Assembly: GCF_988242995.1 (NCBI RefSeq)
Contig: NZ_OZ547043.1
Length of the DNA stretch: 64,000 bases
Strand: one strand, 5' to 3'
In this document: positions 1 to 47,443 of the stretch, in pieces
Numbering within the stretch: the stretch's first letter is position 1
Layout of the letters: each line of letters opens with the position of its first letter
Made by a program: the position numbers and the translations under genes
Notes under the pieces: generated by a model
Told to the model about the DNA's origin: nothing
Seen by the model: the letters and a program-made list of their open reading frames with translations, nothing else
Database searches by the model: none

Positions 1-230
1 AAGATCCGGTCGGTTCCACCATTGAGGCGATCAAAGAGGCGAAAGCGATCGCCGCTGCCGAAGGACGTGAGTTGATCATTCTCGCCTATGTGCTGGGTAC
101 CGATCTTGATACGCCATCATTAGAACAACAAAGCCAGATGTTGCTTGATGCCGGAGTGATTCTGGCCAGCAGCAGCACCAATACCGGATTGCTGGCGCGT
201 GAATTTATCTGCAAAGGGGAGGAAGCCTGA
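1..230 (+). CDS. yahF: C-terminal fragment of FdrA-like (acyl-CoA synthetase / succinyl-CoA ligase alpha-like) protein; 5' end lies outside the window
   Basis: Open frame from the window edge (codons in phase from nt 3) ending at TGA 228-230, overlapping the ATG of the next gene; lies upstream of yahG as in K-12 gene order. Confidence 0.55.
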   Translation, partial: DPVGSTIEAIKEAKAIAAAEGRELIILAYVLGTDLDTPSLEQQSQMLLDAGVILASSSTNTGLLAREFICKGEEA

Positions 231-1648
231 TGAGCCCGTCACTGTTTAGCCAACCGTTGAACGTTATTAACGTCGGTATCGCCATGTTTAGCGATGATCT
301 GAAAAAGCAGCATGTAGAAGTGACCCAACTCGACTGGACGCCGCCGGGGCAGGGCAATATGCAGGTGGTGCAGGCGCTGGATAACATTGCCGATTCGCCG
401 CTGGCAGACAAAATCGCCGCCGCTAACCAGCAGGCGCTGGAGCGCATTATCCAGTCGCATCCGGTGCTGATTGGTTTTGATCAGGCGATAAACGTGGTGC
501 CGGGCATGACGCCGAAAACCATTCTTCACGCCGGGCCGCCGATCACCTGGGAAAAAATGTGCGGCGCGATGAAAGGCGCGGTCACCGGGGCGCTGGTGTT
601 CGAAGGGCTGGCGAAAGATCTCGACGAGGCGGCTGAACTGGCGGCCTCCGGGGAGATCTCCTTCTCGCCGTGCCACGAACATGACTGCGTGGGATCGATG
701 GCGGGTGTTACCTCGGCCTCGATGTTTATGCACATCGTAAAAAACAAAACCTACGGCAACATCGCTTACACCAATATGAGTGAGCAGATGGCGAAGATTT
801 TGCGTATGGGCGCTAACGACCAGAGCGTGATTGACCGCCTCAACTGGATGCGCGATGTGCAGGGGCCAATGCTGCGCGACGCGATGAAAATTATCGGCGA
901 AATCGATCTGCGCTTAATGCTGGCGCAAGCGCTGCATATGGGCGATGAATGCCATAACCGCAATAACGCCGGGACGACGCTGCTGATTCAGGCGCTGACG
1001 CCGGGGATTATTCAGGCGGGTTATTCCGTCGAGCAACAGCGCGAAGTGTTTGAGTTTGTCGCCAGCAGCGACTACTTCTCCGGCCCGACGTGGATGGCGA
1101 TGTGTAAAGCGGCGATGGATGCGGCGCACGGCATCGAATACAGCACCGTGGTCACCACCATGGCGCGTAACGGCGTCGAGTTCGGCCTGCGGGTCAGCGG
1201 CCTGCCGGGGCAATGGTTTACCGGCCCGGCGCAGCAGGTGATCGGCCCGATGTTTGCCGGTTATAAGCCGGAAGATTCGGGGCTGGATATCGGCGACAGC
1301 GCCATCACTGAAACCTACGGCATTGGCGGATTTGCCATGGCGACCGCGCCTGCTATCGTCGCGCTGGTGGGCGGTACGGTGGAAGAGGCTATCGATTTCT
1401 CCCGCCAGATGCGTGAAATCACTCTCGGTGAAAACCCCAACGTCACCATTCCGCTGCTCGGTTTTATGGGCGTGCCGTCGGCAATCGACATCACCCGCGT
1501 GGGCAGCAGCGGCATTCTGCCGGTGATCAACACCGCCATCGCCCATAAAGATGCGGGCGTCGGCATGATTGGTGCGGGCATTGTGCATCCACCATTCGCC
1601 TGCTTCGAGAAAGCCATTCTCGGCTGGTGCGAACGTTACGGCGTCTGA
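230..1648 (+). CDS. yahG: DUF1116-family protein
   Basis: 472-aa ORF; length and sequence recognised as E. coli YahG; coupled to upstream gene. Confidence 0.85.
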   Translation: MSPSLFSQPLNVINVGIAMFSDDLKKQHVEVTQLDWTPPGQGNMQVVQALDNIADSPLADKIAAANQQALERIIQSHPVLIGFDQAINVVPGMTPKTILHAGPPITWEKMCGAMKGAVTGALVFEGLAKDLDEAAELAASGEISFSPCHEHDCVGSMAGVTSASMFMHIVKNKTYGNIAYTNMSEQMAKILRMGANDQSVIDRLNWMRDVQGPMLRDAMKIIGEIDLRLMLAQALHMGDECHNRNNAGTTLLIQALTPGIIQAGYSVEQQREVFEFVASSDYFSGPTWMAMCKAAMDAAHGIEYSTVVTTMARNGVEFGLRVSGLPGQWFTGPAQQVIGPMFAGYKPEDSGLDIGDSAITETYGIGGFAMATAPAIVALVGGTVEEAIDFSRQMREITLGENPNVTIPLLGFMGVPSAIDITRVGSSGILPVINTAIAHKDAGVGMIGAGIVHPPFACFEKAILGWCERYGV

Positions 1649-1742
1649 CCTGCAAACGCACCTTACGATCCCTTCTCCCTTCTGGGGAGAGGGGCAACCT
1701 CACTCTCATAACCCCATCACCCACTGTAGCGGACATAACAAC

Positions 1743-2693
1743 ATGAAAGAACTTGTGGTCGTTGCCATTGGTGGCAACAGCATTATCAAAGATAACGCCA
1801 GCCAGTCGATTGAGCATCAGGCGGAGGCGGTGAAAGCCGTCGCCGATACGGTGCTGGAAATGCTGGCTTCCGATTACGACATTGTGCTGACCCACGGCAA
1901 CGGACCGCAGGTCGGTTTGGATTTACGCCGCGCGGAGATTGCCCACGAGCGCGAAGGGCTGCCCTTAACGCCGCTGGCGAACTGTGTGGCGGATACGCAA
2001 GGCGGCATTGGCTACTTGATCCAACAGGCGCTGAATAACCGACTGGCGCGTCACGGTGAGAAAAAAGCCGTCACCGTGGTGACTCAGGTGGAAGTGGATA
2101 AAAACGATCCGGGTTTTGCTCATCCCACCAAGCCCATCGGCGCATTCTTCAGTGAAAGCCAGCGTGACGAATTACAAAAGGCAAACCCTGACTGGCGTTT
2201 TGTTGAAGATGCCGGACGGGGCTATCGCCGCGTGGTCGCCTCGCCGGAACCGAAACGTATTGTCGAAGCACCTGCCATTAAGGCGCTGATCCAACAAGGT
2301 TTTGTGGTGATTGGCGCGGGCGGCGGTGGAATTCCGGTGGTGTGCAGTGAAGCGGGGGATTACCAAAGCGTGGACGCGGTTATCGACAAAGATCTCTCTA
2401 CCGCGCTATTGGCCCGTGAAATTCACGCCGACATTCTGGTGATCACCACCGGCGTCGAAAAAGTGTGTATTCACTTTGGCAAGCCGCAGCAGCAGGCGCT
2501 GGATCGGGTGGATATTGCCACCATGACCCGCTATATGCAGGAAGGGCATTTCCCGCCTGGCAGCATGTTGCCAAAAATCATCGCCAGCCTGACGTTCCTG
2601 GAGCAGGGCGGCAAAGAAGTGATTATCACCACGCCGGAATGCCTGCCTGCGGCGCTGCGCGGTGAAACAGGCACACATATTATTAAAACGTAA
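1743..2693 (+). CDS. yahI: carbamate kinase-like protein
   Basis: 316 aa from ATG 1743 (MKELVVVAIGGNS...), typical carbamate kinase N-terminus; the ORF-track start at 1569 is an upstream extension. Confidence 0.85.
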   Translation: MKELVVVAIGGNSIIKDNASQSIEHQAEAVKAVADTVLEMLASDYDIVLTHGNGPQVGLDLRRAEIAHEREGLPLTPLANCVADTQGGIGYLIQQALNNRLARHGEKKAVTVVTQVEVDKNDPGFAHPTKPIGAFFSESQRDELQKANPDWRFVEDAGRGYRRVVASPEPKRIVEAPAIKALIQQGFVVIGAGGGGIPVVCSEAGDYQSVDAVIDKDLSTALLAREIHADILVITTGVEKVCIHFGKPQQQALDRVDIATMTRYMQEGHFPPGSMLPKIIASLTFLEQGGKEVIITTPECLPAALRGETGTHIIKT

Positions 2694-2702
2694 GGACGTA
2701 AG

Positions 2703-4085
2703 ATGAAAAAAAACAATAGCCGCCGTGAGTTTCTGAGCCAGAGCTGTAAGATGGTCACCGCCGCCGCGCTGTTTGGTACCTCTGTGCCGCTCGCCCATGC
2801 GGCAGTCTCTGGCACCCTAAACTGCGACGCGAATAACACCATGAAAATCACTGACCCGCACTACTATCTCGACAACGTGCTGCTGGAAACCGGTTTTGAC
2901 TACGAAAACGGTGTGGCGGTACAGACCCGCACGGCGCACCAGACCGTAGAGATTCAGAACGGCAAAATTGTTGCCCTGCGCGAGAACAAGCAGCATCCGG
3001 ACGCCACGCTGCCGCACTATGACGCTGGCGGTAAGCTGATGCTGCCCACCACCCGCGACATGCATATTCATCTCGACAAAACCTTTTACGGCGGGCCGTG
3101 GCGCTCGCTCAATCGCCCGGCAGGCACCACCATCCAGGACATGATCAAACTCGAGCAGAAAATGCTGCCGGAGCTGCAACCGTACACTCAGGAACGAGCG
3201 GAAAAACTGATCGATTTATTGCAGTCGAAAGGCACTACCATTGCCCGCAGCCACTGCAATATCGAACCGGTTTCCGGCCTGAAAAATCTGCAAAATTTGC
3301 AGGCGGTGCTGGCGCGACGTCAGGCGGGCTTCGAGTGTGAAATTGTCGCCTTCCCGCAGCACGGTTTGCTGCTGTCGAAATCGGAACCCTTAATGCGTGA
3401 AGCGATGCAGGCGGGGGCGCATTACGTCGGCGGTCTGGATCCGACCAGTGTTGATGGCGCGATGGAAAAATCCCTCGATACCATGTTCCAGATTGCGCTG
3501 GACTACGACAAAGGCGTTGATATTCACCTGCACGAAACCACTCCGGCAGGCGTGGCAGCCATCAATTATATGGTTGAAACGGTGGAGAAAACGCCGCAAC
3601 TGAAGGGCAAGCTGACCATCAGCCACGCCTTTGCGCTGGCAACGCTCAATGAGCAACAGGTAGATGAACTGGCGCACCGGATGGCGGCGCAGCAAATTTC
3701 TATCGCCTCGACGGTGCCGATTGGCACGCTGCATATGCCGCTCAAACAGTTGCACGACAAAGGCGTAAAAGTGATGACCGGCACCGACAGCGTTATCGAC
3801 CACTGGTCGCCTTACGGCCTGGGCGACATGCTGGAAAAAGCCAATCTGTACGCGCAGCTCTATATTCGTCCTAACGAACAGAACCTCTCCCGCTCGCTGT
3901 TTTTAGCCACTGGCGATGTATTGCCGCTCAACGAAAAAGGCGAGCGCGTGTGGCCCAAAGCGCAGGATGATGCCAGCTTTGTGCTGGTGGACGCCTCCTG
4001 TTCCGCCGAGGCGGTGGCGCGTATCTCGCCGAGAACGGCGACGTTCCATAAAGGGCAACTGGTGTGGGGGAGTGTGGCAGGTTGA
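2703..4085 (+). CDS. yahJ: amidohydrolase-family deaminase with Tat signal peptide
   Basis: 460 aa; N-terminal SRREFLSQ twin-arginine motif; metal-dependent hydrolase His motifs (HIHLD). Confidence 0.85.
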   Translation: MKKNNSRREFLSQSCKMVTAAALFGTSVPLAHAAVSGTLNCDANNTMKITDPHYYLDNVLLETGFDYENGVAVQTRTAHQTVEIQNGKIVALRENKQHPDATLPHYDAGGKLMLPTTRDMHIHLDKTFYGGPWRSLNRPAGTTIQDMIKLEQKMLPELQPYTQERAEKLIDLLQSKGTTIARSHCNIEPVSGLKNLQNLQAVLARRQAGFECEIVAFPQHGLLLSKSEPLMREAMQAGAHYVGGLDPTSVDGAMEKSLDTMFQIALDYDKGVDIHLHETTPAGVAAINYMVETVEKTPQLKGKLTISHAFALATLNEQQVDELAHRMAAQQISIASTVPIGTLHMPLKQLHDKGVKVMTGTDSVIDHWSPYGLGDMLEKANLYAQLYIRPNEQNLSRSLFLATGDVLPLNEKGERVWPKAQDDASFVLVDASCSAEAVARISPRTATFHKGQLVWGSVAG

Positions 4086-4379
4086 TACGCATTTGAAACG
4101 CCTGCAATGGTGAATCGTAAGAGATTTAAAGCCCCAGGGAGTGGGGCGGGAATGGTTTGTTAATGAATGATCCTGAACTTTATAATCTCCCGGCATAATT
4201 TCCAGGGGATTATTTGAGAGAAATACACAAAAGTGAGTTTTAACAATATTTATCAAGCCATAAATGTGACCTGCTTCGGATAAAAAAGATTAAAAATAGA
4301 AAAACCAATGATACTCTTGCTGATGGTTATCAACAGTAATTAAGATGTGATTTTTTTCCGTAATCGCGAAAATATTCTC

Positions 4380-4790
4380 ATGACCATAAAAGAAAAAATC
4401 TCACAAAAATATCCCCATGCTTCCTTTTGTACTTTTGGCGATTCAGCAGCGTTGGCCGATCACCTCGCAACGTTGATTGCGACAGGTGTTAAAACAGCTT
4501 CCTGTGGTTCGCTGGCGGGATGTATTGAAGACAACGCATTTCCGATGATTGGTGAGTATAAGATTGTAGAAAATAGCCGTGGTGAGCCTGTCTGTGTTAT
4601 CAGAGTGATTGGCCTGCATTTACTGCGCTTTTCTGATGTCACCGCGGAGCTTGCCCGTAAGGAAGGTGAAGGTGACCTCAGTCTTGAATATTGGCGTAAT
4701 GAACACCGTCGTTTTTTCCAGGCAGAAGGATGCTATTCACCCGAAATGGACGTTATCTTTGAAGAATATGCCCTTATTGACGTTGTGTAG
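4380..4790 (+). CDS. ASCH-domain protein (YqfB-like fold); not present at this locus in K-12
   Basis: 136 aa from ATG 4380 (MTIKEK...); ASCH-like sequence; an alternative GTG start at 4347 is possible; flanked by AT-rich non-coding DNA. Confidence 0.55.
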   Translation: MTIKEKISQKYPHASFCTFGDSAALADHLATLIATGVKTASCGSLAGCIEDNAFPMIGEYKIVENSRGEPVCVIRVIGLHLLRFSDVTAELARKEGEGDLSLEYWRNEHRRFFQAEGCYSPEMDVIFEEYALIDVV

Positions 4791-5040
4791 ATAACTATTT
4801 TTCTACGCGAAATAAGCTCACAAACATAAAGTATCGCTAATTTTGTTTATTTTGCTGTTTTTTACGTGATGATTGTCACACTTATTGTTACTGCCCGTTT
4901 TGTCCATATTTATAACCAAATTTTTAATAGCTGCCTGAAATAGGGCTGTTTATTCTGCATAAAAATATTCGAAAATTCTTATTCTCTCCAGCGCGCTAAT
5001 TTGGGCGAACACTTCCTGACTACCCTGCAATGAGGCTGAA

Positions 5041-6027
5041 ATGATGAATAAACGTTTTGTTATCAATATGGTGTCTTCGCTGTTATTAGGCGCTGCGCTA
5101 ATTTCTGCGCCGCTCCAGGCAGCGGAAAAAGTCGTGGTGAATATCTCTAAAGTCGATGGTATGCCGTGGTTTAATCGCATGGGCGAAGGTGTGGTCGAGG
5201 CGGGTAAAGCCTTTGGTGTTAATGCGTCACAGGTGGGGCCTTCAAGTACTGATGCTCCGCAACAGGTTAAAATCATTGAGGATTTAATCGCCCGTAAGGT
5301 TAATGCAATTACAATTGTGCCAAACGATGCCAACGTGCTGGAACCGGTATTCAAAAAAGCGCGAGATGCCGGAATTGTGGTTCTGACCAACGAATCCCCC
5401 GGTCAGCCAAGTGCTAACTGGGATATCGAAATCATTGATAACGAAAAATTTGCCGCTGAATATGTTGAGCATATGGCGAAACGCATGGGTGGCAAGGGCG
5501 GCTATGTGATTTACGTGGGTAGTTTGACCGTGCCGCAGCATAACTTATGGGCTGACTTGCTGGTGAAATACCAGAAAGAGCATTACCCGGATATGCATGA
5601 AGTTACCCGCCGCATGCCGGTTGCCGAGAGTGTGGATGACTCACGTCGTACCACACTGGACCTCATGAAAACCTATCCTGACTTGAAAGCGGTTGTCTCC
5701 TTTGGTTCAAACGGTCCGATTGGCGCGGGACGTGCAGTGAAAGAGAAACGGGCGAAAAATAAAGTCGCAGTCTATGGCATGATGATCCCTTCACAGGCGG
5801 CATCACTGATTAAAAGTGGTGATATCACCGAAGGGATTACTTACGATCCGGCCTCTGCAGGTTACGCACTCGCGGCCGTCGCCAGCACGTTGCTGAAGGG
5901 TGAAGAGATCAAACCTGGATTAGAAATGGAGAATCTCGGTAAGGCCGACGTAGATATGGATAAGCGAATTATCCGTTTCCATAAGGTATTACTGGTCAAC
6001 AAAGACAATATCGACTCACTTTATTAA
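5041..6027 (+). CDS. periplasmic monosaccharide-binding protein of a CUT2 ABC transporter (LsrB/YtfQ-like)
   Basis: 328 aa; signal peptide (LLGAALISAPLQAAEK); C-terminal ...VNKDNIDSLY resembles the LsrB family; first gene of a PBP-ATPase-permease-permease block. Confidence 0.8.
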   Translation: MMNKRFVINMVSSLLLGAALISAPLQAAEKVVVNISKVDGMPWFNRMGEGVVEAGKAFGVNASQVGPSSTDAPQQVKIIEDLIARKVNAITIVPNDANVLEPVFKKARDAGIVVLTNESPGQPSANWDIEIIDNEKFAAEYVEHMAKRMGGKGGYVIYVGSLTVPQHNLWADLLVKYQKEHYPDMHEVTRRMPVAESVDDSRRTTLDLMKTYPDLKAVVSFGSNGPIGAGRAVKEKRAKNKVAVYGMMIPSQAASLIKSGDITEGITYDPASAGYALAAVASTLLKGEEIKPGLEMENLGKADVDMDKRIIRFHKVLLVNKDNIDSLY

Positions 6028-13439: not shown

Positions 13440-13506
13440 TTCTGAATCCTATGTAAACATCCCCGATGCGTAAGTTTATCGGTGATCATCATCTATTGAA
13501 ATTTAT

Positions 13507-47259: not shown

Positions 47260-47285
47260 TTCGCACCTCATCATCTGCACGCAAT

Positions 47286-47334
47286 ATACTATAGGGGGGT
47301 ATGCTATATGTCAATGCATACCCCCCTATAGTAT
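47286..47334. promoter_or_regulatory. frmRAB operator: 19-bp perfect inverted repeat with G6/C6 tracts
   Basis: ATACTATAGGGGGGTATGC ... GCATACCCCCCTATAGTAT just upstream of the frmR start. Confidence 0.8.
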
Positions 47335-47443
47335 ATAACACTGGAGAATAAAATTTATCCGGTGAATGTAGTCGGATAACAAAAAGTAAAGAGGGGCCTA
47401 ATCGACAGGGAAGGCCGCCCCGGATAGCGGGCGGCAGAAGCAA

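Follow-up and report, generated by a model that had tools for sequence, protein, structure and literature searches.

A BoxC-type hairpin is a minority allele of the polymorphic yahG-yahI spacer of Escherichia coli

The yahG-yahI junction and its hairpin

The hairpin described here lies in the intergenic spacer between yahG and yahI, near the start of a 64-kb stretch of DNA that was analysed as a whole (the window). The window is E. coli DNA, its first 20 kb being 98.4-99.0% identical to the best-matching complete E. coli genomes listed. The gene names given in the original prediction agree with the annotation of near-identical E. coli genomes. Its placement of the hairpin between yahG and yahI inside an operon is also correct, and a yahDEFGIJ operon has been suggested (PMC4765031). 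The two genes are separated by 94 nt in the window, with the yahI ATG at 1743, and the junction is made up of the following features.

230-1648, + strand: yahG coding sequence, 472 aa, with its TGA stop at 1646-1648 (ORF list; E. coli annotation, DUF1116/YlbE family)
1649-1663, + strand: left part of the spacer, with substitutions and a 1-nt indel among the hairpin alleles (8-allele alignment)
1664-1669, + strand: TACGAT, the counterpart of the type-A BoxC 5' flank (A/T)CGGTC in seven flanked BoxC copies (K-12 and other E. coli); start of the profile alignment
1670-1680, + strand: 5' arm, pyrimidine block CCCTTCTCCC(T), corresponding to BoxC block 1 (CCCTCNCCC) with one mismatch
1681-1683, + strand: loop, TCT in the RNA fold and TTCTG (1680-1684) in the 10-bp reading; 1682 and 1683 vary among alleles
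1684-1694, + strand: 3' arm, purine block (G)GGGAGAGGGG, with an exact BoxC block 2 (GGGAGAGGG) at 1685-1693
1695-1707, + strand: CAACCTCACTCTC, in place of the TTAGGGTGAGGGG of a full BoxC; no third G block, and the profile match ends at 1693
1705-1742, + strand: yahI leader, C-rich and G-poor, conserved throughout the E. coli alleles and still discernible in other genera
1743-2693, + strand: yahI coding sequence, 316 aa, carbamate kinase family (ORF list; annotation)

On the + strand the hairpin reads CCCTTCTCCC / TTCTG / GGGAGAGGGG at 1670-1694. It starts 21 nt past the yahG stop and ends 48 nt ahead of the yahI ATG, so that neither codon is masked. The location just after the yahG stop and the 10-bp stem with one G·U pair and a 5-nt loop had both been predicted, and the sequence bears them out: C1670-C1679 pairs with G1685-G1694 with a single wobble (T1673·G1691). 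A DNA fold returned the identical 10 bp and 5-nt loop (-8.8 kcal/mol, z = -3.0), and in the minimum-energy RNA fold of the + strand U1680·G1684 was added as an 11th pair, leaving a loop of 3 nt. RNA folding, which had been proposed as a check, yielded a stable stem-loop of -19.5 kcal/mol (z = -3.25 in a 36-nt context, with 0 of 200 dinucleotide shuffles equally stable), and this structure dominated the RNA fold of the whole 94-nt spacer. The minus-strand RNA hairpin is less stable (-15.5 kcal/mol, z = -1.6) because the wobble pair turns into an A·C mismatch.

To place this stability in context, the + strand of the 64-kb window contains 12 sites at or below -19.5 kcal/mol versus about 4.3 in dinucleotide shuffles, and one hairpin of this strength within 64 kb is therefore unremarkable; the chance expectation for such a hairpin inside a given 94-nt spacer is about 0.006. 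An Rfam 15 covariance-model scan of positions 1-6000 (E up to 10) gave 0 matches, and we found no further copies of the hairpin in the 64-kb window when allowing up to 3 mismatches. With -24.4 kcal/mol, a perfect 21-bp inverted repeat at 47284-47336 (ATATACTATAGGGGGGTATGC / GCATACCCCCCTATAGTATAT, with an 11-nt spacer) is the window's most stable local structure; it is located just upstream of the minus-strand start codon of a 369-aa ORF and resembles the frmRAB operator region. REP-like palindromes of the GTCGGATGCG...CGCATCCGAC and GCCGGATAA...TTCGGC types, near 13505, 20881, 27793, 28481 and 41521, also rank among the strongest hairpins of the window.

The C-rich, G-poor leader at 1705-1742 may serve as a regulatory or translation-initiation leader for yahI. 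Position 1733 is an A private to the window, with a T in all seven complete E. coli genomes and all nine metagenome contigs compared (CACCCTCTGTAGCGG). The hairpin allele has no stop in the yahI frame between a TTG within yahG and the end of the gene (1569-2693, 374 aa). One NCBI protein record (P0001) gives yahI in this 374-aa form, and the 58 extra N-terminal codons probably stem from a misannotated start site. Some caution is needed with annotations of this junction, as the hairpin allele invites a false extension of yahI and the BIME allele yields a spurious 'yahH' ORF.

Relation of the hairpin to BoxC

BoxC, also named PIT or TMECO, is an intrastrand-triplex repeat found in E. coli as well as in other Proteobacteria (Bergler 1992; Bachellier; Hoyne and Maher 2000/2002; Holder et al. 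2015, PMC4666352). The TMECO consensus is CCCTCNCCC-N3-6-GGGNGAGGG-N3-GGGNGAGGG, with 23 copies in K-12, and the published definition tolerates one mismatched pair per stem (PMC4666352). According to PMC4666352, variability is unusually high at TMECO loci and partial deletion common, and no function of the repeat is known. The full BoxC/PIT was reported to have neither promoter nor terminator activity (Hoyne and Maher, as cited in PMC4666352), and the earlier tests cited there gave no in vivo phenotype either.

An unprompted blastn search with the hairpin returned BoxC copies as the only second loci, which were weak matches present in many genomes and located upstream of fabI in K-12 and at wzc-wcaA in another strain. 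BoxC was first noticed beside envM, which is the old name of fabI. Compared by eye, ACGATCCCTTCTCCCTTCTGGGGAGAGGG and the ACGGTCCCCTCTCCCCTCTGGGGAGAGGG of the wzc-wcaA BoxC copy agree in 26 of 29 bases. When the 23 published K-12 TMECO copies were made into a profile, its sole match in the 64-kb window was to + strand positions 1671-1693, which align with model positions 1-23 of 37 (E = 1.2e-3). We built a second profile from seven type-A BoxC copies with their flanks, including five additional K-12 copies fetched for this use, and it matched 1664-1693 on the + strand (model positions 10-39 of 57, 19.4 bits, E = 4.3e-5), with only 7.2 bits on the minus strand. None of the window's other strong hairpins matched the BoxC profile, and the 64-kb window contains neither another BoxC nor any instance of the strict TMECO pattern.

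The likeness extends over the 5' flank and the first two blocks. Type-A copies carry (A/T)C(G/A)GTC immediately 5' of block 1, a rule contained in the profile alignment, and the window has ACGATC at 1665-1670 where the seven copies have ACGGTC, ACAGTC or TCGGTC; this flank likeness should be read with the caveat that CTTAC...CCC is partly present in the unrelated-looking spacer of another enterobacterium (L136) too. In block 1 the window has CCTTCTCCC at 1671-1679, an 8/9 match to CCCTCNCCC, and because of this one mismatch the strict TMECO regular expression fails, a near miss under a published definition that allows one mismatched pair. Block 2 is intact, with the loop TTCT(G) followed by GGGAGAGGG at 1685-1693, and the stem forms.

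Past the first purine block the similarity to BoxC stops abruptly, and GCAACCTCACTCT in the window takes the place of the BoxC TTAGGGTGAGGGG. Next to the stem come GCA and ACCTCACTC, and not a third block (GGGNGAGGG after a 3-nt second loop). With the third G-rich block missing the BoxC triplex cannot form, and the element is thus a hairpin-only fragment. The sequence at 1695-1707 looks like native spacer, judging from its resemblance to CAACACACAC of the orthologous L136 spacer. Two further candidates in the downstream region were rejected. A triplex with the downstream pyrimidine stretch was set aside on strand polarity, as the order pyrimidine-purine-pyrimidine on the + strand and purine-pyrimidine-purine on the - strand would be wrong for either triplex motif. 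The downstream 'TAACCCC', considered as a BoxC remnant, is part of the yahI leader and is conserved in genera whose spacers have no BoxC profile hit.

A full three-block BoxC at yahG-yahI was not found among the 5,426 complete genomes of E. coli, in which even the best matches end at block 2, or in metagenomes with a block2-block3-leader pattern. When flank-anchored gaps of 15-45 nt were allowed in the metagenomes, nine of nine hits were exactly 25 nt, with no third block. Since a full BoxC was not found at the locus, truncation from a full copy is something that we infer rather than observe. For the BoxC family the median number of places is 9 per E. coli genome. The hairpin variant itself is intergenic and occurs only at yahG-yahI; E. 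coli genomes show no more than 2 places each, and the second of these is a true BoxC.

A polymorphic repeat slot

The yahG-yahI spacer is a polymorphic repeat slot in E. coli, and the hairpin is a minority allele. A 601-nt junction query matched 5,048 of the 5,426 complete E. coli genomes, although the match was usually split in two by 50-420 additional bases, and a hairpin-specific 60-nt query detected the hairpin allele in 654 of the 5,426 (~12%). In the same genome set, 120 of the 5,252 places matched by the junction query were on plasmid-typed records. We extracted the spacers from eight genomes. The 94-nt hairpin version occurs in the window and in strain AR_0077, and a 95-nt variant in strain CUVET20; the remaining spacers measure 142, 152, 246, 329, 421 and 514 nt and contain 1-5 BIME units (REP pairs GCCGGATGCGGCGTGAACGCCTTATCCGGCCTAC / GTAGGCCTGATAAGCGTAGCGCATCAGGC). 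The extracted alleles all have the same outer flanks, namely the yahG stop to the left and TCATAACCCCATCACCC...ATG to the right. The REP consensus palindrome (GCCGGATGCGGCG...CGCCTTATCCGGCCTAC, Y/Z pairs) is absent from the window spacer and present in the BIME alleles (L002-L007). The yahG-yahI array of K-12 and EHEC is known as REP23 and was formerly annotated as the gene 'yahH' (PMC4765031, PMC11551758).

The original prediction overlooked the BoxC/PIT/TMECO truncation, the status of the hairpin as a ~12% allele of a polymorphic slot, and the negative reporter tests of full BoxC. The hairpin is not a locus-specific regulatory invention. What had appeared to be one is part of an interspersed repeat already described, in a slot whose hypervariability is likewise known (REP23/'yahH'), and taken alone it carries little weight.

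Four hairpin haplotypes, all with the stem kept (97% paired cells across the four), were distinguished among eight genomes and nine metagenome contigs that carry this allele. Two of the changes are in the loop, at 1682 and 1683. In the stem, U·G becomes U-A through G1691 to A, C-G becomes U·G through C1677 to T, and the terminal pair is broken by C1670 to A, so that two of these three substitutions preserve pairing. There is a hint of strand preference in two events, in that the wobble states pair on the + (mRNA) strand only. A covariation test on eight alleles found no compensatory double substitution, the shuffles were uninformative, and the covariation statistics therefore carry no information. 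The 25-nt hairpin has five variable positions versus two in the 48-nt yahI leader.

Orthologous yahI loci were recovered via protein homologs. Across genera, the 3' ~40 nt of the spacer (ATAAC..CATCAC.CTCTGTA.CGGA...ATG) is conserved and the stop-proximal part is different in each. The leader ATAACCCCATCACCC.CTGTAGCGGACATAACAAC (~40 nt before the ATG) is present in every E. coli allele and also in the Kluyvera-like contig, K. aerogenes, Salmonella and L136; upstream of the leader, the spacer sequence is entirely replaced between taxa. L136 has a CCCCGGC-GCTTTCTGA-GCCGGGG hairpin followed by TTTCTTTCT, the Kluyvera-like contig (L141) a REP-like palindrome, K. aerogenes (L139) a Klebsiella-type REP and Atlantibacter (L146) a GC hairpin. 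In Yokenella regensburgei (L138), a three-block BoxC-like element, CCCTCTCCCCCGGGAGAGGGTTGTGGCGAGGGG, lies directly upstream of yahI at 2439-2470, and among the spacer hairpins of other taxa it was the only one to match the BoxC profile. Salmonella (L143) has only a weak AT-rich hairpin (-4.5 kcal/mol). Overall, a slot hairpin of -16 kcal/mol or stronger is found in nine of ten spacer versions (E. coli, Kluyvera-like, K. aerogenes, Yokenella, Atlantibacter and L136), with unrelated sequences. The junction itself also varies: the gene upstream of yahI is different in Yokenella (a 515-aa ORF after an AllG-family gene), and in Citrobacter sp. Res13-Lact-LER2-35-b (L137) yahG is absent upstream of yahI, which is shortened to 305 aa and has an IS1 (InsA/InsB ORFs) directly at its 5' end, another type of disruption at this junction.

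A scan of representative genomes with CCTTCTCCC-N3-6-GGGAGARGGG listed matches in Alpha-, Beta- and Deltaproteobacterial assemblies, with no enterobacterium and no ortholog of the yahG-yahI hairpin among the matches listed. In these (L012-L131), hairpins of the form CCTTCTCCC-loop-GGGAGAAGGG recur between genes in high copy number in Hyphomicrobiales, Bradyrhizobium, Desulfuromusa, Sideroxyarcus and others, indicating that the pyrimidine/purine hairpin is a very common repeat core, consistent with PMC4666352. In the matches listed, such repeats are usually preceded by CCCTCATCCGG and a second small hairpin or have CCGGGGATGAGGG downstream, and many form inverted pairs ~110 nt apart. No copy with the window's flanks was found beyond the yahG-yahI locus.

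Possible role in the transcript and comparison with known elements

With moderate confidence, we propose that the hairpin is a truncated BoxC copy in a repeat-capturing slot, which would act as a passive exonuclease-blocking stem-loop in the yahG-yahI transcript. BoxC identity and allelic context are read directly from the alignments and genome counts above, whereas the effect on the RNA is what such a stem would be expected to have. The copy would have retained 1664-1693/4, from the 5' flank through the pyrimidine block and the loop to the first purine block, and lost the third G-rich block, leaving it able to adopt a stem-loop fold only and no three-stranded fold. The slot just 3' of the yahG stop would tend to capture repeats, with BIME in the other sampled alleles and other palindromes in other genera. 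Upon yahG-yahI transcription the + strand RNA would fold (-19.5 kcal/mol), and the stem would hinder 3'-to-5' exonucleases (PNPase, RNase II) and protect the upstream yahG segment as REP stem-loops do; transcription would not be terminated and the yahI start would not be occluded. REP stem-loops are established mRNA stabilisers against PNPase and RNase II. As summarised in PMC4765031, they impede 3' exonucleases and stabilise upstream mRNA. The mRNA-stabilising or attenuating role that had been suggested for the hairpin is plausible, and it gains indirect support from the presence in most strains of REP/BIME, reported stabilisers and attenuators, in the same slot, and from the stable palindromes of nine of the ten spacer versions. 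The RNA-level effect may be unselected and close to neutral, and repeat accumulation at permissive sites could explain a filled slot without selection.

It is possible, if less probable than the proposal above, that the hairpin is a functionless relic, either a decayed repeat copy or a scar of repeat turnover, which drifts at a permissive site and has no selected effect on expression. The slot tolerates 52 to 514 bp of unrelated sequence, its hairpin in Salmonella reaches merely -4.5 kcal/mol, and the hairpin is conserved no better than its surroundings; TMECO loci, too, are reported to vary unusually and to be often partly deleted, and they have no known function (PMC4666352). However, the stem is kept in four of four haplotypes, two of three stem substitutions preserve pairing, and nine of ten spacer versions contain a strong hairpin. 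Furthermore, from what is known of REP stabilisers, a stem of -19.5 kcal/mol is expected to impede exonucleases; as this is expected of any such stem, some biochemical effect is likely even if unselected.

Selection on the slot itself seems unlikely to us. Here any strong stem-loop would be favoured, and unrelated palindromic repeats (BIME, BoxC-type, REP-like and plain GC hairpins) would have been captured or retained independently by different lineages of E. coli and by different genera. If true, repeat families would be interchangeable at the RNA level, and the BoxC hairpin, derived from a repeat without known function, would have a REP-like mRNA-stabilising or attenuating role.

Slightly more doubtful is a native origin, with a lineage-specific intercistronic hairpin that is a diverged ortholog of the terminator-like hairpin of other genera and resembles BoxC by convergence. 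L136 does have a hairpin and TTTCTTTCT at the same position, with the TTCTG loop motif and flanks that can be aligned (CTTAC... and ...CAAC.CAC..ATAAC), and CTGAGCCGGG is also present in Salmonella. Yet the match to the BoxC profile is specific to one strand and extends into the non-palindromic 5' flank (E = 4.3e-5), agreement with a BoxC copy in 26 of 29 bases goes far beyond the shared CCC/GGG ends, and the hairpins of L136, the Kluyvera-like contig, K. aerogenes and Atlantibacter are without any BoxC hit.

We consider it improbable that the spacer is a Rho-dependent attenuator, in which C-rich, G-poor RNA would form a rut-like loading site and the hairpin would modulate Rho access and polarity on yahI. 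The composition would suit such a site (16 C and 1 G in the 34 nt of 1695-1728, and a pyrimidine-rich 5' arm), and untranslated BIMEs are reported, in work cited in PMC4765031, to give Rho-dependent attenuation; but the untranslated stretch is just 94 nt, about a quarter of it locked in the stem, and the C-rich leader is present in all alleles regardless of the hairpin. An intrinsic (Rho-independent) terminator ending the yahG transcript, suggested by a GC-rich stem-loop soon past a stop codon, is very improbable and was rejected: what comes after the stem is CAACCTCACTC (+ strand) or ATCGTAAGG (- strand), with no T-run on either, in keeping with the predicted lack of a U-tract, a terminator and promoter scan found nothing at 1670-1694, and full BoxC/PIT had no terminator activity in the reporter tests cited in PMC4666352.

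The truncated BoxC hairpin is of interest mainly for the natural swap experiment that the slot provides, in which a single operon junction has a 25-nt BoxC-type hairpin in some E. coli lineages and 1-5 BIME units in others. Expression of yahG and yahI across these alleles would show whether BoxC hairpins and REPs do the same mRNA job.

Among known elements, intrinsic terminators share with the hairpin a GC-rich stem-loop past a stop codon and differ from it in the U-tract, which the hairpin lacks, and in that the hairpin is sited within an operon. The CCTTCTCCC-loop-GGGAGAAGGG repeats belong to the broader triplex-motif class (PMC4666352) and have a near-identical stem with the same pyrimidine-then-purine order, but in the matches listed they are high-copy, carry extra blocks (CCCTCATCC upstream or GGGGATGAGGG downstream) and reside in unrelated genomes. 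Compared with BoxC, the hairpin is a single-copy variant without the third block N3-GGGNGAGGG and with CCTTCTCCC instead of CCCTCNCCC as block 1. The two are alike in the pyrimidine block, the 4-5 nt loop (TTCT versus CTCT/TTT), the exact GGGAGAGGG and the strand polarity, as well as in an intergenic location a few tens of nt past a stop codon at a locus that is hypervariable between strains, as reported for TMECO. In contrast to the REP/BIME elements of REP23, the hairpin has no similarity to the REP consensus, consists of a single 25-nt unit rather than an array of 140-510 bp, and lacks sequence recognised by the known partners RAYT transposase, gyrase and IHF. It nevertheless occupies the same slot with the same flanks in the same putative operon, at a stability close to that of individual REPs (-19 to -21 kcal/mol), and the RNA roles reported for REP/BIME, as an exonuclease barrier and in Rho-dependent attenuation, are those proposed for the hairpin.
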